Assembly: GCA_018817595.1 (NCBI GenBank) | Contig: JAHITU010000001.1 | Location: forward strand, 32,109 to 96,108 | Source: Patescibacteria group bacterium | GTDB lineage: Bacteria > Patescibacteriota > Minisyncoccia > Phycocordibacterales > UBA12079 | Length of the DNA: 64,000 bases | Reading direction: 5' to 3' | In this document: in pieces, positions 21,301 to 61,219 of the stretch | Numbering within the stretch: the first letter of the stretch is position 1 | Layout of the letters: each line of letters starts with the position of its first letter | Notes under the pieces: generated by a model | Seen by the model: only the letters and a program-made list of their open reading frames with translations | Told to the model about the DNA's origin: nothing | Databases searched by the model: none | Made by a program: the position numbers and the translations under genes

Positions 21301-21425
21301 ATTGTTTATATTATACTTTATTTATTTTGAATAACCAAATATTAGTTTAGCTTATAGCTTATAGAGGTTAGCTTTTAGGAGAAAAATTTACTTCGTAAAT
21401 TTTTCTGACTTTCGACTTTACAGAC

Positions 21426-21464
21426 CTGCCTGTCCCTGCGCGCCGGCAGGCGTGGGCAGGCAGG
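21426..21464. repeat. Family-A GC-rich palindromic intergenic repeat (about 40 bp)
   Basis: cctgcctgtccctgcgcgccggcaggcgtgggcaggcagg, directly 3' of the rsmI stop. Other copies: 19685-19717 (partial), 31646-31685, 37523-37562 (plus mini-palindrome 37479-37497), 56525-56584 (opposite strand, with an internal duplication), 57588-57627. Confidence 0.8.
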
Positions 21465-21480
21465 CTTTATAGACTTTCGA

Positions 21481-22167
21481 CTAATTTATCATCACCACAA
21501 ATTCACCTTTTACCTTATCTGAATTGTCTTCAAAATATTTTATTACTTCTTCTATTGTTCCTGAAACAATTTGTTCAAACATTTTAGTTATTTCTCTACC
21601 AATAACAATTTTTTTATTTTGCTCAAATTCTTCTGATAATTCTTTTATTGTTTCTAGGGTTTTTAATATTCTGTGTGGAGATTCATAAAAAACAGCTGTT
21701 CTCTTTAATTCCAAAATTTCATTAATGGCAGTTTGTTTACCTTTTTTACGAGGCAAAAATCCAAAAAAAGTAAAAGAGTCCGCAGGTAAACCACTAACTG
21801 ACAAAGCAGAAATTAAGGCCGAAGGACCAGGAATTGGTGTGACCATAACACTCTCGCCAAATTTTTCTTTCACTTGAGCCACCAACATAAAACCAGGATC
21901 TGAAATAGTAGGCGTTCCAGCGTCAGAGACTAAGGCTAAATCTTTACCTTCTTCCAGTAATTCTAAAATTTTATCAGTCTTAATCTTTCCACTAAATGAA
22001 TGATAAGAAATAGTAGGAGTTTCTATTTCGTATTTATCTAAAAGTTTTCGAGTTACTCGAGTATCTTCGCATAATACAAAATCCACCTCTTTTAAAATTC
22101 TCAAGGCTCGTAAAGTAATATCTTCCAAGTTCCCAATAGGTGTTCCTATTATGTATAAATGTTGCAT
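21481..22167 (-). CDS. rsmI: 16S rRNA (cytidine1402-2'-O)-methyltransferase RsmI
   Basis: 228 aa. MQHLYIIGTPIGNLEDITLRALRILKEVDFVLCEDTR is a tetrapyrrole-methylase-fold RsmI N-terminus. Confidence 0.85.
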   Translation of the reverse strand: MQHLYIIGTPIGNLEDITLRALRILKEVDFVLCEDTRVTRKLLDKYEIETPTISYHSFSGKIKTDKILELLEEGKDLALVSDAGTPTISDPGFMLVAQVKEKFGESVMVTPIPGPSALISALSVSGLPADSFTFFGFLPRKKGKQTAINEILELKRTAVFYESPHRILKTLETIKELSEEFEQNKKIVIGREITKMFEQIVSGTIEEVIKYFEDNSDKVKGEFVVMIN

Positions 22168-23558: not shown

Positions 23559-23640
23559 TTTATTTTGTTCTTTATTTAACCAGAAAGGTTTGTCAATTTA
23601 TTGGCAAGCCTTTTCTTATTGTTTTTATATTTGTTTAAGC

Positions 23641-24212
23641 ACCTGTCAGAGTCGAACCTACCTACCCCTATGTACCAAAAGGCGTGGACAGGTAAGCTGA
23701 CGACCTATGGTTTACGATACCATTGCTCCCGCCTCATCGGCGAGTCGCCGATGAGGCGACTACCATTAAACTTCAAACTGAGCCCTCTGTCGGACTTGAA
23801 CCGACCACCTACGATTTACCCTGTTAGAGCTGAGGGCGAGAATTGAACTCGCGACCTACGGTTTACGATACCGTTGCTCTACCAACTGAGCTACCTCAGC
23901 TCTAACAGGGTAAACGATACTATTATCCCGCCTCATCGGCGGGTCGCCGATGAGGCGACTACCAGATGAGCTAAGAGGGCAAACTCGTCTTAATCCCCAC
24001 CGGCTGGAGTTATATTGAGCCCGAGGACGGGATTGAACCGACGACCTACACATTACCATTGTTGAAACCTCCTAAGGTCGGTTTCAACTCCACCAACTGA
24101 GCTATTTCAATTACCTTTTGAGCCAACAAACGGAATCGAACCGATGACCTCTCCAGTGGACCATTAAAACTTGCGAATCTCGTCTTAATCCCCACCGACT
24201 GGAGCTCGAATG
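23641..24212 (-). other. Array of tRNA-Thr-derived fragments and pseudo-tRNA pieces with interspersed GC-rich palindromes
   Basis: Three copies of a Thr(CGU) anticodon arm (GGTATCGTAAACC or variant). T-arm/acceptor 3' halves at about 23770-23826 and 24017-24050. A 35-nt duplicate of the tRNA-Thr(GGU) 3' end at 24121-24155. Palindromes at 23731-23757 and 23930-23956. Confidence 0.5.
23828..23900 (-). tRNA. tRNA-Thr (anticodon CGU)
   Basis: Reverse complement folds manually as acceptor GCTGAGG/CCTCAGC, D arm GCTC-AGTTGGTA-GAGC, anticodon arm ACGGT-AUCGUAA-ACCGT, T arm GCGAG-TTCAATT-CTCGC, discriminator U. Confidence 0.7.
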
Positions 24213-24285
24213 AGCCAACAAACGGAATCGAACCGATGACCTCTCCCTTACCATGGGAGTGCTCTACCGACTGAGCTATGTTGGC
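24213..24285 (-). tRNA. tRNA-Thr (anticodon GGU)
   Basis: Acceptor GCCAACA/TGTTGGC, D arm GCTC-AGTCGGTA-GAGC, anticodon arm CTCCC-AUGGUAA-GGGAG, T loop TTCGATT. One U·U mismatch in the T stem. Confidence 0.65.
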
Positions 24286-24488: not shown

Positions 24489-24562
24489 TGTCGACGAATG
24501 GATTCGAACCATTGATCTGGCGCGTATGAGACGCCCGCTTTAACCAACTAAGCTACGTCGAC
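24489..24562 (-). tRNA. tRNA-Met/Ile2-type (anticodon CAU, elongator-like)
   Basis: Acceptor GTCGACG/CGTCGAC, anticodon arm GGCGT-CUCAUAC-GCGCC, T arm AATGG-TTCGAAT-CCATT. 74 nt. G1-C72 is paired, so it is not initiator-like. Confidence 0.7.
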
Positions 24563-25233
24563 ATTTTTAATGCCTTTAATAGACCTAAAACTTTATATTT
24601 CAAATAAGTGCTTTTTCTAATTTTTAAAGACAAAACCCCAAAATAATTATCATAATTTTCATAAACCTTCTTTTGTTTTATTTTTAAAAAAACAGGGTTT
24701 CCAAACTGTTCAATAGGTAATTCTAACAGATTAGACCAAAATTTCAATACTTTTTTAATTCTAGGTCTATGAATTTCGTTTATAAAAATCCTAGGCATAA
24801 ATTCCTCTTCTTTTATTTTAAATATTACTTCAAACCATCTTTTCATAAAAACAATAGAATCTGGGTCAGAATTAACAAACGCTAATGCACTTTTATCAGA
24901 TTTAACACCTTCTCCCCAATATAAACCTAAACCTACCATCAACAGATCTTTTTTTGATATATTATTTATAGCTTTAAGTCCTTCTTTTTCATAAAAACTA
25001 ATTTTATCTAATTTCTTTTGATGATTCATTTTAGCTCCAATCATTCTTCCTTTATTTCCTGCTTTTATAGCATTTTTCTTCAAAAGACTTTTTTGCTTAT
25101 CTGTAAGTTTTATGTCTATGCACCAAGAACTAACAGAGCCTCTAGATACGCCTAATACTTTTTCAATTGATCTAATACTCCATCCTTTCTTTCTTAATTG
25201 TTGAGCTTTTATTTTTTCTTTAAACTTAGCCAT
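24553..25233 (-). CDS. HTH + single-motif LAGLIDADG-like protein (putative homing-endonuclease-like)
   Basis: 226 aa. N-terminal HTH KKGWSIRSIEKVLGVSRGSVSSW. LLMVGLGLYWGEGVKSDKS resembles a LAGLIDADG motif. The last 10 nt overlap the 5' end of the tRNA-Met. Confidence 0.45.
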   Translation of the reverse strand: MAKFKEKIKAQQLRKKGWSIRSIEKVLGVSRGSVSSWCIDIKLTDKQKSLLKKNAIKAGNKGRMIGAKMNHQKKLDKISFYEKEGLKAINNISKKDLLMVGLGLYWGEGVKSDKSALAFVNSDPDSIVFMKRWFEVIFKIKEEEFMPRIFINEIHRPRIKKVLKFWSNLLELPIEQFGNPVFLKIKQKKVYENYDNYFGVLSLKIRKSTYLKYKVLGLLKALKMST

Positions 25234-25268
25234 TATGTTATATATTGTAGCATATGGTTGGTTTATTA

Positions 25269-25324
25269 CAACAAGTAAAACAAAAACCTCAGAATTAATT
25301 CTGAGGTTTTTGTTTTACTTGTTG
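25269..25324. terminator. Perfect 27-bp inverted repeat (2-nt loop) directly 3' of the initiator-like tRNA
   Basis: caacaagtaaaacaaaaacctcagaat / attctgaggtttttgttttacttgttg. The right arm overlaps the tRNA 3' end by 3 nt. Confidence 0.6.
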
Positions 25325-25392
25325 CGGGAGTCTGAATCGAACAGACACCTAGAGGTTATGAGCCTCCTGTGCAACCTTTACACCATCCCGCG
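25322..25392 (-). tRNA. tRNA-fMet-like (anticodon CAU, C1·A72 mismatch)
   Basis: 5' CGCGGGA paired with 3' TCCCGCA leaves C1·A72 unpaired, as in bacterial initiator tRNA. Anticodon arm GGAGG-CUCAUAA-CCTCT, T arm GTCTG-TTCGATT-CAGAC. 71 nt. Confidence 0.6.
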
Positions 25393-25395
25393 ATA

Positions 25396-25583
25396 TATTT
25401 AATATTTAATTTTCAACTATTATAATAACCTCTAAAGGTTATAAGTCATATTGCTTCATGTGCAGTTCGTCTACACCATCCCGCGATATATTTAATATTT
25501 AATTTTCAACTATTTTAATAACCTCTAAAGGTTATAAGTCATATTGCTTCATGTGCAGTTCGTCTACACCATCCCGCGATAAT
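25396..25583. repeat. Tandem direct repeat (about 93 bp x 2) of degenerate tRNA 5'-half-like units
   Basis: The unit ends in caccatcccgcgat, identical to the 5' acceptor/D region of the tRNA at 25322-25392. The unit also carries aacctctaaaggtt, echoing the anticodon stem. Confidence 0.7.
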
Positions 25584-25831
25584 TTAGCTTATAGCTTTTA
25601 GGAAATTAGGGTGTTAGGAGAAAAAATCGCTTTGCGATTTTTTTCTTTTCTACCTTTTCCTTTTTTCAATAATATAAAATATAACCCAAAAAACCCAAAA
25701 AAACAAGAAAAAAATAATTTCTAGACGGCTTCATTACTTCACTACGTTTCGTTTCTCGCAGAGACGAATTTTTATGAGGCAAAATTCACATAAATAATAC
25801 TTAATATATACTATATAATATGTAATATAGA

Positions 25832-26419
25832 CTAAATAAATTGAAATTCTTCAAAAACAATTTTATATAAACCAACTGCTCTCTTAGCTGTTCTTTGTGT
25901 TAATAATGAGTCTGTTCCTCCGTGAGCTATTTGATTTCTTATTTTGTGCGCCTCCCAAGCACTATTTATTGTAATGAAATCACTTCTTTCTACTTGTTTT
26001 AATCTTTCTCCCAAAGACTCTCCTGAGTAACCGGACTTTTTCATTATTTCATCTAGAATTACATCAGCATCTAAAACAGCCATTCTCCATTCAGCTGGTG
26101 AATCCGAGTTCACATAACTTACTATTTTTTCCCATCTCTCGTTTTTAATTTCTCCTCCTTCAAAATCTACAGTAGAAGAAACTACGGTATCAAATATTTC
26201 AGAATTTTTTGCGGAAACCTCTTTCATTTTGTGGCGAACATAAAGAATCCCAGCCAACAACAAAGCAGAAAGGATCAAAGAGTAAAACATTATAGAAGAC
26301 CAATTATCATAGTACAACTTAAATAACCTAACCGGGTTAAGATAATAAAATATATTTGAAATTAAAAGATAAATCCAATAATAAATTTGTCCAAGATTTA
26401 AGAAATCAATATTTTCCAT
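25832..26419 (-). CDS. Membrane-anchored protein with a C-terminal HEPN-like (Rx4H) motif
   Basis: 195 aa. Two N-terminal TM helices. The C-terminal AWEAHKIRNQIAHGG carries an R-x4-H motif. Confidence 0.4.
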   Translation of the reverse strand: MENIDFLNLGQIYYWIYLLISNIFYYLNPVRLFKLYYDNWSSIMFYSLILSALLLAGILYVRHKMKEVSAKNSEIFDTVVSSTVDFEGGEIKNERWEKIVSYVNSDSPAEWRMAVLDADVILDEIMKKSGYSGESLGERLKQVERSDFITINSAWEAHKIRNQIAHGGTDSLLTQRTAKRAVGLYKIVFEEFQFI

Positions 26420-26596
26420 AATTTCAAGTGAGGATTTATAAAAACGATTATGTAATAATATGTTTTTATATAATCCGAGCGAAGGAATTATATGCTCGCT
26501 TCATATAATTTCAAGTGAGGATTTATAAAAACGATTATGTAATAATATGTTTTTATATAATCCGAGCGAAGGAATTATATGCTCGCTTCATATACC
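26419..26596. repeat. Tandem direct repeat (about 89 bp x 2) in the promoter region upstream of 25832-26419
   Basis: The unit atttcaagtgaggatttataaaaacgattatgtaataatatgtttttatataatccgagcgaaggaattatatgctcgcttcata occurs twice back-to-back. Confidence 0.8.
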
Positions 26597-31427: not shown

Positions 31428-31645
31428 TTTATTAGTTTTTTGGTTTCTGTCTTATTATATGGATTGAAGAGATTGCTTCCCTAGTACTTTGAATTAAATT
31501 GCTTACTTTTTATTTTACAAAGCATTTTAGGTTTTTTATTAACTTTATTTATATGGTTGTAACAAAGTACTAGGTCGCAAAGACGAAAATCTACGATTTT
31601 CATTACAGATTTTGCGGAGCAAAATCCGTAACTTTTGACTTTGGA

Positions 31646-31685
31646 CCCGCCTGCCCCTGCGCGCCGGCAGGCGTGGTCAGGCAGG
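31646..31685. repeat. Family-A GC-rich palindromic repeat copy
   Basis: ccgcctgcccctgcgcgccggcaggcgtggtcaggcagg, then ctttacagactttcgactcg, directly 3' of the pilin stop at 31707. Confidence 0.8.
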
Positions 31686-31706
31686 CTTTACAGACTTTCG
31701 ACTCGT

Positions 31707-32237
31707 TTACTGCCAATTCAATAAACGTTCTTTGACTACAAATTGACGAGTATTAGGACCCTCTTGCCAAGACATGGTTACTACTACTTCTAATTCCTTA
31801 TCTGGGATAATTTCATTTATTTCTATTTCCCTTTTAATCAAAGAAACATTTCCAGAGGTATAACCATAAAGATAACTAACTGGATCATATTTTAAATTTT
31901 CACAACCGCTTAAAGAACAAGAAGAAACTGTTTGAGCAGGAGAATCAATCTTACATTTAGTACCAAAATTAGTACAATCAGTCAAACCAATCAACCAACC
32001 TCTATCATTTAGAATATTTGTGTCTCTAACGTTTCTTATGTACTCAATAGCCTCTTGAGCTAAATACATAGCAACTATCTGCCCCTTAGCTATTTTAGAT
32101 ATGGAAAGTCCTTTTGTAACCAAAACTAATGGTCCAGACATAGCAATCAGCAAAACAGTAATAGCAATAAAAGTTTCTATCAAAGTAAAACCTCTTTTAA
32201 GTTTATTATTATTTTTTAATTTTTCAAAATATTTCAT
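31707..32237 (-). CDS. Type IV pilin/pseudopilin (prepilin N-terminal methylation motif)
   Basis: KRGFTLIETFIAITVLLIAMSG. Confidence 0.8.
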   Translation of the reverse strand: MKYFEKLKNNNKLKRGFTLIETFIAITVLLIAMSGPLVLVTKGLSISKIAKGQIVAMYLAQEAIEYIRNVRDTNILNDRGWLIGLTDCTNFGTKCKIDSPAQTVSSCSLSGCENLKYDPVSYLYGYTSGNVSLIKREIEINEIIPDKELEVVVTMSWQEGPNTRQFVVKERLLNWQ

Positions 32238-37478: not shown

Positions 37479-37562
37479 CTACCTGCCGGCAGGTAGGTTA
37501 TAGACTTTATGAACCTTACAGACCTACCTGCCCCTGCGCGCCGGCAGGCGTGGGCAGGCAGG
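37479..37562. repeat. Family-A repeat copy plus the adjacent mini-palindrome cctacctgccggcaggtagg
   Basis: Located 3' of the pilT stop (37579) and 5' of pilC. It is flanked by the pilus-promoter palindrome at 37454-37472. Confidence 0.8.
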
Positions 37563-37578
37563 CTTTTGACTGTTTCTT

Positions 37579-52050: not shown

Positions 52051-52215
52051 TCGCGTAGGTTTTAATTAATAATGATCTAGTATAGTAAAAACAAAAATGG
52101 CTACACAAGACCGACGGCAACCCTCTTTCGAAGATTACCCTGCCTCCCTTTCGGGTGCAGACCTACGCGAATAAGTGCCGGCTTATGTAGCCGTTTTTAT
52201 TCGCGTAGGTTTTTT
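52051..52215. repeat. GC-enriched inverted/direct-repeat cluster upstream of the serine recombinase
   Basis: Direct repeat ttcgcgtaggtttt at 52051 and 52201. Inverted repeats cctacgcgaa/ttcgcgtagg and ggctacacaag/cttatgtagcc. Confidence 0.5.
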
Positions 52216-52317
52216 ATTTGTACCATGCTAAATGTAAATTTAGTTTAGGTATTGTCAATTGATATAATACAGTATCCTTAATGTATTATCTACTCATTAT
52301 ATCGCAGTTCATTTGTT

Positions 52318-55151: not shown

Positions 55152-55324
55152 TTGATTTTTTATACAATTATATTAATTAATAATACAAAATATAATCATA
55201 TAACACCATAGATAATTTAAAATATATAAATTTAAATGAATAATAATAAATAAAAAACACCTAATTAGGTGTTTTTTATTTATTAAAGCTATTTCGTGCT
55301 AGCACGATGTTGCGGAGAGGGAGG

Positions 55325-56524: not shown

Positions 56525-56584
56525 CCTGCCTGCCCACGCCTGCCCACGCCTGCCGGCGCGCTGGGACGCGCAGGGGCAGGCAGG
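56525..56584. repeat. Family-A repeat copy (orientation matches + strand transcription; internal duplication)
   Basis: cctgcctgcccacgcctgcccacgcctgccggcgcgctgggacgcgcaggggcaggcagg, 80 nt after the stop of 55862-56443. Confidence 0.75.
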
Positions 56585-57466: not shown

Positions 57467-57587
57467 AAGCCCCCCTCTATAAATTAGTTAACAGCTATTA
57501 TTAGTATAAGAATATAATCAAAAAATGCAAGAAAGAAAAAGACGGTCGCTTTTGCGACCGTCTTTTCCCTAATTAGCTAATTCCTAA

Positions 57588-57627
57588 CCTGCCTGCCCCT
57601 GCGCGCCGGCAGGCGTGGGCAGGCAGG
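57588..57627. repeat. Family-A repeat copy
   Basis: cctgcctgcccctgcgcgccggcaggcgtgggcaggcagg, directly 3' of the stop of 57640-58116. Confidence 0.8.
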
Positions 57628-57639
57628 TTTCCTAAAAAG

Positions 57640-58713: not shown

Positions 58714-58876
58714 AATGTCCTCCTTATAAAAAACTATGATATTAAAATCAAATCAATTTAATGCTATGATAAACATATCATATTTATCCCGTTAGAGAAA
58801 GAAAAAAGAAAGATAAAAACGGGAAAAAATTATCAATTAAATTAAGGTAATTTATTAAGAGTAATTAGGGGCTAGT

Positions 58877-58914
58877 CCCGTTAGAAACACTTTTAATAAA
58901 GTATTTCTAACGGG
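58877..58914 (+). promoter_or_regulatory. 11-bp-stem hairpin ending 1 nt before the recG ATG, carrying the motif TCTAACGGG-ATG
   Basis: cccgttagaaa-[16 nt]-tttctaacggg then ATG at 58915. The GT4 gene at 9290-10387 also has TCTCTAACGGG directly before its ATG, on its own strand. Confidence 0.4.
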
Positions 58915-61092
58915 ATGAATTTAAATTCAACAATAGAAAAAGAATTTCGTATCAACGAAACTCAAAAAAAAGCTTTGAAGAGATTGGGTCTTAAAACTAT
59001 TGAAGACCTGCTTTTTTATTTCCCTAATCGATACGAAAGCACCGAAGATCTGAGAGAAATCAAAGGCTTAAAAAAGGGAGAGAAAATAATTCTCTACGCC
59101 CAAGTCAAAAAAATCAAAGCCACTAAAGCCTATTACAAAAAAATTCCTATGACCGAAGCTGTCCTTGAAGATGCTTCCGGAGTAATTACTGCCATTTGGT
59201 TTCGCCAAGCCTATATCTCTAAAATGCTTCCTGAAGGCTCTTTTGCTAAGTTTACCGGTACTATTTCTGAACGAAATGGTAAATTATATTTAGCCAATCC
59301 AGAATATCATGAGGTCAGCACTTTGCCGATTATTTCTGATGAATCATTATTCTCGGAGAAAGACAAAGATTCTTTTGTTCTCCCGATTTACCCTGAAACC
59401 CGAGGTTTAAGTTCAAAATGGATTTACCATACAATTTTAAAAATATTTTCCGAAGGAGTAATGGACGAAATTCAAGATCCTATTTCTGAAAAAATTTTAA
59501 AAAAATACAATCTTCCAACCTTAAAAACGGCTTTGATTTGGATTCATACCCCTCAAAAAAAATCTGATGCCGAAGCTTCTAGAAAAAGATTCGCCTTTGA
59601 AGAAATTTTCTTTATTTCTCTTCTTCGAGCTAAACAAAAAACAGCTTATCAGAAAAATCCTTCTTTTAAAATTTCTAAAACAAGAAAAGAGCTGAAAGAT
59701 TTTATAGACCGCTTCCCCTTTAAACCGACAGATTCTCAAACAACATCAATCAAAACTATTTTAGATGATTTTAAAAAAGATTATGCTATGAATCGTTTAC
59801 TTGAAGGTGATGTGGGATCTGGAAAAACTGCGGTGGCTGCAGCGACTATTTATGCTATCACTACTACTGCTCCCAAAGACCGACCTTCGGCTCGATTGCA
59901 AACCGCCTATATGGTCCCGACGGAAATTTTAGCTAAACAACATTTTGAATCCTTTATTAAATTTTTTGAATATTTAAATATCAATATCGGACTGATTACT
60001 TCTTCAGGTTGTTTTAAATTTCCTTCCAAAGTGAACCCTACTGACTGGACTAAAATTTCTCGCTCTCAACTTCTGAAGTGGGTATCCAATGGTGAAATAC
60101 CCATCTTGATCGGGACACATTCTTTAATTCAAAAAACAGTTGAATTTAAAAATTTGGCTTTTATTGTTATCGATGAACAACATAAATTCGGAATATTACA
60201 AAGACAAAAATTAACTAGGAAAAATAGCACCGAGTCAGGCACAAAAGAACTTACTCCGCATTTATTATCTATGACAGCCACTCCTATTCCTCGAACATTG
60301 GCTTTGAGTATTTACGGAGACCTTGATTTAACCCTTTTGGATCAAATGCCTCATGGAAGAAAACCAATTATTACAGAAATAGTTACTCCGAATAAAAGAA
60401 ATCAAGCCTATGAACAAATAAAATTAGAACTTAAAAAAGGCAGACAAATGTATGTTATTTGTCCTCGCATTGAAGAAGCCGATCCTAATAAAGCCGGAGC
60501 CTTGAGAGTAAAATCAGTTGTCGAAGAAGCTAAAAGACTCAAAGCAGAAATATTTCCTGAATATGAAATAGGAGTCCTACATAGCAAAATGAAACCTGCG
60601 GAAAAAGAAGAAATTATGAATGCTTTCACAGAAGCCAAAATTGATATTTTAGTGGCTACTTCTGTGGTGGAAGTAGGAGTAAATGTTCCCAATGCTACTG
60701 TGATTATTTTAGAAGGAGCAGAGAGATTCGGGCTAGCTCAACTTCATCAATTAAGGGGACGAGTAATTCGTTCTAACCATCAAGCTTATTGTTTTGTTTT
60801 TAGTGACACCAAATCAGATAATACTATAAAAAGACTGAGTGCTTTAAAGACTGCCAAAAACGGATTTGAATTAGCTGAATTTGATTTAGAATTAAGAGGT
60901 TCTGGAGAGTTAATTGGAAATAAACAATGGGGAGTTTCTGATTTAGGAATGGAAGCTATTAAAAATCTTAAATTAGTAGAAGCTGCCCGCACAGAAGCCC
61001 AAAAATTAATAGAGGATAATCCTGATTTACAAGATTACCCCCTAACTGCTCAAAAAATCGCTAAAATTGAAAAACTTATTCATTTTGAATAG
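58915..61092 (+). CDS. recG: ATP-dependent DNA helicase RecG
   Basis: 725 aa. Wedge/OB N-domain, helicase motifs GDVGSGKT and VIDEQHKFG, and a RecG C-terminal region. Confidence 0.9.
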   Translation: MNLNSTIEKEFRINETQKKALKRLGLKTIEDLLFYFPNRYESTEDLREIKGLKKGEKIILYAQVKKIKATKAYYKKIPMTEAVLEDASGVITAIWFRQAYISKMLPEGSFAKFTGTISERNGKLYLANPEYHEVSTLPIISDESLFSEKDKDSFVLPIYPETRGLSSKWIYHTILKIFSEGVMDEIQDPISEKILKKYNLPTLKTALIWIHTPQKKSDAEASRKRFAFEEIFFISLLRAKQKTAYQKNPSFKISKTRKELKDFIDRFPFKPTDSQTTSIKTILDDFKKDYAMNRLLEGDVGSGKTAVAAATIYAITTTAPKDRPSARLQTAYMVPTEILAKQHFESFIKFFEYLNINIGLITSSGCFKFPSKVNPTDWTKISRSQLLKWVSNGEIPILIGTHSLIQKTVEFKNLAFIVIDEQHKFGILQRQKLTRKNSTESGTKELTPHLLSMTATPIPRTLALSIYGDLDLTLLDQMPHGRKPIITEIVTPNKRNQAYEQIKLELKKGRQMYVICPRIEEADPNKAGALRVKSVVEEAKRLKAEIFPEYEIGVLHSKMKPAEKEEIMNAFTEAKIDILVATSVVEVGVNVPNATVIILEGAERFGLAQLHQLRGRVIRSNHQAYCFVFSDTKSDNTIKRLSALKTAKNGFELAEFDLELRGSGELIGNKQWGVSDLGMEAIKNLKLVEAARTEAQKLIEDNPDLQDYPLTAQKIAKIEKLIHFE

Positions 61093-61146
61093 GAAGCACA
61101 AAATACTTAAAACCAAAGCTAAACGCTTTGGTTTTAAGTATTTTTG

Positions 61147-61219
61147 TGCGTGTGCCAGGACTCGAACCTGGGACCACAGAGGTATAAGCTCTGCGCTCTA
61201 CCAACTGAGCTACACACGC
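61147..61219 (-). tRNA. tRNA-Ile (anticodon UAU)
   Basis: Acceptor GCGTGTG/CACACGC, D arm GCTC-AGTTGGTA-GAGC, anticodon arm CAGAG-CUUAUAC-CTCTG, T arm CCCAG-GTTCGAGT-CCTGG. Followed by the hairpin aaccaaagc-taaac-gctttggtt. Confidence 0.65.

Follow-up and report, generated by a model that had tools for sequence, protein, structure and literature searches.

The initiator-type tRNA(CAU) gene of the window (the whole stretch of 64,000 nt analysed here) is preceded by two tandem 93-bp units that, judging from their homology to it, appear to be truncated, decayed copies of positions 1 to ~46 of that same tRNA. We consider it probable that the units go back to an old partial tandem duplication of the 5' region of the gene, and that the resulting array turns over by recombination and is at most weakly functional. 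The feature as a whole is a case of locally unstable repeats and does not call for any new mechanism. All four elements that the initial annotation had described at this locus were recovered, while the strand (the tRNA is on the minus strand), the length of the stem and the length of the shared block had to be corrected.

The window consists of AT-rich bacterial DNA whose ORFs include gatA, gatC, ligA and an rsmI-type gene, and its closest public relatives are MAGs of Candidatus Paceibacterota/Patescibacteria. The feature is part of a minus-strand cluster in which ARAGORN finds tRNA genes for CAU, CAU, Asp, Thr and Thr. The tRNA(CAU) of interest (Table 1) is 71 nt long, its anticodon being confirmed by ARAGORN and by the Rfam alignment at 25392-25322. 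In that alignment its ends read CGCGGGA...TCCCGCA-A, with position 1:72 flagged as unpaired (a C1/A72 mismatch); the discriminator is A73, and CCA is not encoded. Nine relatives have this gene too, with the identical mismatch, and the neighbouring CAU tRNA at 24562-24488 has G1-C72. According to the same alignment, the anticodon stem (A29-U41, G30-C40, G31-C39) holds two of the three G-C pairs of initiators, a variant that some bacteria tolerate. The D stem, GUGU/GCAC, has U11:A24, which is the elongator-type orientation and not the A11:U24 of initiators, so that initiator identity is indicated mainly by the 1:72 mismatch; on that ground the gene can be called initiator-like, as had been suggested at the outset. 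Presumably it resembles the tRNA-fMet of E. coli; a blastn search of E. coli genomes with the tRNA returned no match at this length.

Relatives of the locus were gathered by using the upstream 195-aa ORF as an anchor and by pattern scans, and are referred to below by their L numbers. The genome-wide scan with the 5' block of the tRNA returned 31 loci, three of which are taxonomically related (L005 and L025 from the Paceibacterota, L007 from an unclassified bacterium), and a metagenome scan with a 41-nt tRNA pattern returned one locus only. Viral contigs scanned with the unit core gave 20 matches, none of them with the GGAGGTT hairpin arm of the unit behind it or a tRNA-fMet nearby, and these are taken to be due to chance.

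Table 1. Elements of the tRNA(CAU) locus, with positions counted from the first nucleotide of the window
Feature	Position	Strand	Remark
tRNA(CAU), initiator type	25322..25392	-	ARAGORN; Rfam RF00005, 56.8 bits
Perfect 56-nt palindrome, terminator with A-tract and T-tract	25269..25324	-	Inverted-repeat search, terminator scan, fold
Third ATCGCGGGATGGTGTA copy, the true tRNA 5' end plus 2 nt of leader	25379..25394	-	
Proximal 93-bp unit	25395..25487	-	Carries TATTAT/TATAAT
Distal 93-bp unit	25488..25580	-	One base off the proximal unit (TATTAA/TAAAAT); missing in L001
TATAAG, possible -10	25588..25593	-	9 nt upstream of the pseudo-C1 of the distal unit; weak, by eye; absent from the promoter scan
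Short hairpin with A-tract and T-tract, AAAAAATCGC AAA GCGATTTTTT	25620..25644	.	Between the conserved motif and the units
Promoter-like motif TTGTTT-N17-TATATT	25678..25706	-	

Tandem Repeats Finder places the repeat at 25379-25586, with a period of 93, 2.2 copies and 98% matches, and the sole difference between the two units, read on the plus strand, is an A at 25422 and a T at 25515. Each unit starts with AT followed by an exact copy of tRNA nt 1-14, and the block common to the units and the tRNA is thus the 16-mer ATCGCGGGATGGTGTA, two leader nucleotides plus tRNA 1-14, which is matched three times against 0.01 expected. Behind this exact stretch the proximal unit continues into a decayed D arm, GTGTAG-ACGAA-CTGCAC, the D-stem strands GTGT..GCAC(A) being retained in the units, and then into a decayed anticodon arm, CTTATAACCTTTAG, with some 10 extra nucleotides; it also holds the hairpin ATAACCT/AGGTTAT, and each unit ends, after its tRNA-like part, with an AT-rich spacer of ~30 nt. 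The anticodon-arm copy agrees with the CTCATAACCTCTAG of the tRNA at 12/14 positions, a score that 6 of 2000 shuffles equal, which bears out the degenerate copy of the anticodon stem claimed by the initial annotation. From tRNA position 1 to ~46 the unit and the tRNA can be aligned through the D stem and the anticodon arm if insertions of 2 nt and of 10-12 nt are allowed, in keeping with the further claim that the units derive from the tRNA gene's own 5' part, and neither the T arm nor the 3' acceptor strand is found in them. This homology is significant in four lineages (6, 2, 0 and 0 of 2000 shuffles, respectively, reach the score), and the units of these lineages are homologous to one another as well as to the tRNA. 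Units are 99-100% identical within a genome and 60-74% identical between genomes; the 10-nt insertion ACTAATATGA, which does not come from the tRNA, is nonetheless identical in three lineages. Under a simple tandem duplication, the spacer should reproduce the native leader together with its -10 region, a prediction that lacks statistical support, since 1109 and 1694 of 2000 shuffles do equally well. Likewise, an older "unit 0" sought in the 57 nt upstream of the distal unit was no better than shuffles and was rejected.

The initial annotation had proposed copy number as a check, and the number of units does vary among relatives, which show 0, 1, 2 and at least 2. The nearest of them, the ENA contig L001/L002, is 99.98% identical to the window over 12.6 kb and has one unit, in the TATAAT version, instead of two, a 1/2 difference that could be short-read assembly repeat collapse and not real heterogeneity. 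Its neighbouring protein is 100% identical to that of the window, and the identities that follow refer to this comparison. No units were seen in L035 and L043 (89%), two identical ones of 95 bp in L042 (77%), none in L036-L040 (75%), and a single one with the decayed start ATTGTAGG in L005 and L044-L047 (66%), five contigs that agree with each other. L054 (63%) has two units, its contig ending inside the second, and these two differ from each other in the first ~10 nt and agree fully over the following ~50 nt; L055 (63%) ends inside its first unit and L025 starts inside a unit, and L007, L034 and L048 (61-63%, a range that leaves out L034) have none. Because the unit-bearing lineages form two clades that are only ~63-68% identical in the neighbouring protein, the element is old, and its distribution points to repeated loss. 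A deletion can be read in L035/L043, which lack the 3' half of the leader hairpin and all that follows it as far as the tRNA start; its junction lies within the 5-nt ATCGC common to the leader hairpin and the tRNA start, which suggests that the region recombines at short repeats.

On the favoured reading, a partial tandem duplication of the 5' region of the tRNA gene would leave a truncated copy upstream, and unequal crossing-over or replication slippage between the blocks of 11-17 nt common to the units and the true tRNA start would then add or remove whole units without a scar, expansion and contraction resulting in 0, 1, or 2 or more units; the ATCGCGGGATGGTGTA copy at the true tRNA 5' end is the presumed substrate for such unequal recombination. 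A crossover would restore the tRNA sequence at the start of the unit that it creates, which may explain why the block is exact in the window and in L042 and yet the rest of the unit is only 60-74% identical between genomes. Turnover of the array would also explain the near identity of the units within a genome, and a dependence of recombination on the shared block would explain the single copy in the five contigs whose block has decayed, the decayed start in L005 indeed going together with a single stable copy. Some constraint is hinted at, however, by the fact that the units can still be aligned across clades whose terminator stems differ wholly, and by the identity of ACTAATATGA in three lineages together with the pattern of the L054 units.

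As to expression, a promoter-like TTGnnn-N17-TATAWT motif stands upstream of the tRNA, and of any units, in all ten loci examined. In the nine that contain the tRNA, its distance to C1 is 11, 18, 43, 43, 70, 172, 192, 208 and 285 nt, the last being the window; in L054, the motif lies 195 nt from the end of the contig, which stops before the tRNA. With the motif upstream and the tRNA downstream of them, the units sit inside the presumptive 5' leader and would most likely be transcribed as part of it. In L042, the motif and leader run directly into the distal unit with no hairpin between, and this leader joins the distal unit just as the leader of L034 joins the real tRNA. Between the motif and the units of the window there is the short hairpin of Table 1, which L005 shares with different stem bases and which, through its T-run, might stop transcription in the window and in L005, in which case a promoter further downstream would be needed. 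RNase P would remove the long leader at C1. As the units have no T arm and no 3' acceptor strand, they should not be able to become tRNAs, and the cut would be expected at the true C1 only; the units are probably carried passively in the pre-tRNA leader.

A different role would fall to the units if each were a promoter-and-leader module, extra units raising the expression of the single essential initiator tRNA gene, which we regard as rather unlikely. This had been one of the two origins offered by the initial annotation, and the proximal unit does hold suitable hexamers, ATGACT-16-TATTAT (9/12) at 25449..25422 with an overlapping TATAAT; the one base by which the units differ falls exactly in that hexamer and weakens the pair in the distal unit, L001 has the better of the two versions, and a downstream promoter would be useful where a terminator-like hairpin parts the upstream motif from the units, as in the window and L005. 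However, by-eye reading finds no conservation of the -35/-10 pair in the units of L005, L025 and L054, and gives GTTAAA in L005, GTGAAA in L025 and GAGAAT in L042 at the place of the hexamer. L042 has no hairpin that would call for a second promoter, the lineages with no units manage with the upstream promoter alone, and the promoter scan is near background in DNA this rich in AT (20 found vs 12.3 +/- 3.5 expected from shuffles). The only promoter-like motif common to all ten loci is the one upstream of all units. The pseudo-tRNA core might also act as a functional RNA or a cis-regulatory leader, be it a processed small RNA, a decoy for the 3' acceptor strand of the tRNA or a leader ORF that senses the supply of initiator tRNA, and we give this only a small chance. 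The core can be recognised across clades whose neighbouring proteins share ~65% identity, every unit retains two hairpins, and a comparison of L005 with L054 gives 53/57 matching positions in the core against 31/43 in the flanks (p = 0.005), but 5/6 lineage pairs show no higher conservation of the core than of the flanks, and RNAalifold finds compensatory changes at 0/13 pairs of the hairpins, from 4 distinct units only. An insertion relative to the tRNA also puts an ATG 5-6 nt after GAAGGA, which is Shine-Dalgarno-like; the short ORFs nevertheless vary in length and end (5, 8, 14 and >20 codons) and no terminator follows, and a leader peptide was rejected on these grounds. The CAU triplet is gone in two lineages, units have been lost in several close relatives, and Rfam at permissive thresholds returned no family for the units of the window region, L042 and L054. 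By analogy, some tRNA-linked repeats of E. coli yield RNAs that bind Hfq or CsrA (PMC8144298). It is quite improbable, in our estimate, that in one lineage of the Paceibacterota the truncated module is maintained by selection as part of the initiator tRNA leader, as a processed small RNA or a cis device; in the cis variant, the decoy 5' acceptor strand or the ORF with its Shine-Dalgarno sequence and ATG could couple initiator-tRNA output to translation initiation capacity. In both variants, the module would be the counterpart, on the 5' side, of those E. coli repeats whose RNAs bind Hfq or CsrA.

Integration offers another source for repeats of this kind, the units being in that case att-site remnants of an element that integrates into the initiator tRNA gene, with the 16-mer as recombination core. 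An exact direct repeat of 16-17 nt at every unit boundary, divergence that starts right after the core, integrase activity in the relatives' version of this tRNA cluster and a patchy distribution among close relatives would all agree with it. Integrases that target tRNA genes, however, reportedly duplicate the 3' part of the gene, with a block that runs from the anticodon loop or the T loop to the 3' end, and the polarity here is the opposite, the 5' part being duplicated (1-14 exact, ~1-46 decayed); moreover, the sequence after the core is tRNA-derived, as gene duplication predicts. No integrase-bearing element, nor any other, was found between unit and tRNA in ~10 distinct relatives, a search for which L034 served as positive control: there, the tRNA-Thr(GGT) gene and a second, 45-nt version of its 3' half stand 4627 nt apart and flank an integrase (PF00589, E = 3e-32), and in the window, too, it is the 3' end of tRNA-Thr(GGT) that is repeated, over 36 nt at 24154-24119. 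Integration scars, the second origin offered by the initial annotation, are an unlikely source of the units on this evidence, and we would put their chance as very low. Equally slim is the chance that an assembly error produced the second unit of the window, or removed it from L001, and that the copy number is in truth constant. The window and L001 both come from metagenome assemblies, the 93-bp repeat is shorter than reads and longer than most k-mers, and contig breaks fall within units in related species; a spurious duplication, however, would not give units that differ by one base, two-unit arrays occur independently in L042 and L054, and an artefact would bear on copy number only and not on the nature of the units. 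On balance, the partial duplication of the 5' region of the gene, followed by turnover of the array, is the explanation that we favour.

The other conspicuous element of the locus, the palindrome that follows the tRNA, has arms of 28 nt each (25269-25296 and 25297-25324) that are 100% complementary with no spacer between them, one base pair more than the 27 of the perfect hairpin reported initially. It takes in tRNA positions 71-73, the last three nucleotides of the gene, folds into a 26-bp stem with a 4-nt loop (-37 kcal/mol, z = -12.95) and is also picked up by a terminator scan. Directly behind the tRNA, eight related lineages have CAACAAG, then an A-run, a stem and a T-run, the position being constant and the sequence of the stem unrelated in each; these stems are of 16-22 bp, with folds of -19 to -30 kcal/mol. 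The window itself has many inverted repeats of 18-29 nt, some of them right after other tRNAs, such as the one at 61100-61144 that abuts tRNA-Ile and the one at 55244-55285 that comes after tRNA-Ser. Given hairpins at the same place in all the relatives and similar repeats within the window, the palindrome is the Rho-independent (intrinsic) terminator of the tRNA gene and ordinary for the lineage. It shares with other intrinsic terminators a GC-containing stem between an A-run and a T-run directly 3' of the gene, and differs from those of the relatives by the length of its stem and by reaching into the tRNA, so that what is strain-specific in it is only extra length and perfection. The suggestion that the hairpin is a special processing or recombination site finds no support in these relatives, whose A-tract/stem/T-tract hairpins occupy the same place with sequences that are all different.

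Among the systems with which the units can be compared, tandem duplication at an initiator tRNA locus is known from metZ-metW-metV of E. coli, a series of tandem initiator tRNA genes; the copies there are complete and functional, whereas those of the window are truncated after ~46 and decayed. The attL/attR fragments of tyrosine integrases likewise place a partial direct repeat of a tRNA beside the intact gene and are present in a patchy manner, although they hold the 3' part and flank an element, or did so in the past, as in L034 and at 24154-24119 of the window. The closest parallel is found in the tRNA-linked repeats (TLRs) of E. coli, such as rtT and the 178-bp repeats of tyrT. [quoted passage not shown] Both kinds of repeat are short units within a tRNA operon, present in one to several copies per locus, both carry an exact copy of one end of the tRNA beside them (18-19 bp in E. 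coli; here, 14 nucleotides of the tRNA and 2 of the leader), and both look like products of unequal recombination. The TLRs, however, lie downstream and copy the 3' end, while the units of the window lie upstream, copy the 5' end, retain remnants of the D arm and the anticodon arm, and belong to another phylum, the Patescibacteria. The units are in this sense a mirror image of the TLRs and, being unrelated to them in sequence, an analogue and not a member of the group.

If the partial duplication with array turnover is the true history of the units, the locus is a natural example of short exact repeats at the edge of a tRNA gene driving the gain and loss of copies, and it shows leaders that range from a few nucleotides to nearly 280 nt on an essential single-copy gene in the reduced genomes of the Patescibacteria. 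In practical terms, it accounts for assembly breaks at this locus and warns annotators of pseudo-tRNA fragments. Should the units give rise to a stable or regulatory RNA, this would extend tRNA-linked repeats to the 5' side of the gene and to another phylum.

Several further observations were made in the same tRNA cluster. The last 36 nt of tRNA-Thr(GGT) (24211-24246, minus strand) are repeated exactly 92 nt downstream, at 24119-24154, with a spacer of 57 nt (CTCCAGTCGGTGGGGATTAAGACGAG...ACTGGAG), and in view of the 4.6-kb tyrosine-integrase island that follows the same tRNA in L034, with its 45-nt copy of the 3' half, the copy in the window looks like an integration scar. Next to it, the minus strand of 23640-24110 is dense in tRNA-like pieces that ARAGORN does not call; run with intron options, the program gave no extra tRNAs among the fragments at 23640-24210. 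One piece of this patch resembles Thr(GGT) with a hairpin insert and without the 5' acceptor strand, while an outer tRNA-like sequence, GCCCTCT...AGAGGGCTCA, appears to enclose the whole tRNA-Thr(CGT) gene, with an 11-bp extension of the acceptor stem (ACCCTGTTAGA/TCTAACAGGGT), and a GC-rich 33-nt hairpin is present in two copies (23727-23765 and 23926-23964). One relative has another tRNA-linked duplication in the cluster: in L042 the 3' end of tRNA-Asp and its terminator (1290-1345) are repeated ~210 nt downstream (1500-1565), with an inverted partial copy of the tRNA-Asp 3' end between both repeats.

On the minus strand at 24553-25233, a 226-aa ORF separates the second CAU tRNA, of which it overlaps the first 10 nt, from the promoter-like TGcTACAAT belonging to this tRNA. 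It has a weak N-terminal helix-turn-helix match below the Pfam cut-off and, by eye, a LAGLIDADG-like LGLYWGEG, for which Pfam gave no LAGLIDADG match. The relatives have no ORF at this spot and carry LAGLIDADG_3-type ORFs after the second CAU tRNA; the 226-aa ORF is probably a mobile homing-endonuclease gene. At 26418-26594, a stretch of 87 bp is duplicated perfectly in tandem (2.0 copies, 100%) and extends over the promoter and 5'-UTR region and the very start of the 195-aa ORF; it is double in L001 too and single-copy in L005, and with related copies elsewhere, for example at 58820-58920 of the window, it may be a dispersed intergenic module.

In the remainder of the window, otherwise AT-rich like the genome, GC-rich palindromic repeats (CCTGCCTGCCC...GGCAGGCAGG) occur at 56525-56584, 57586-57629, 37513-37566, 21408-21488 and 31631-31709, two of them bracketing ~1 kb with small ORFs, and these could be a family of REP-like or miniature mobile elements. 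The gene at 61146-61219 (minus strand) is a tRNA-Ile with the anticodon UAU, which is uncommon in bacteria, and has a 20-bp perfect hairpin directly after it. Finally, the region 52116-52251 (minus strand) matches the LOOT RNA of Rfam with 60 bits, above the gathering score.
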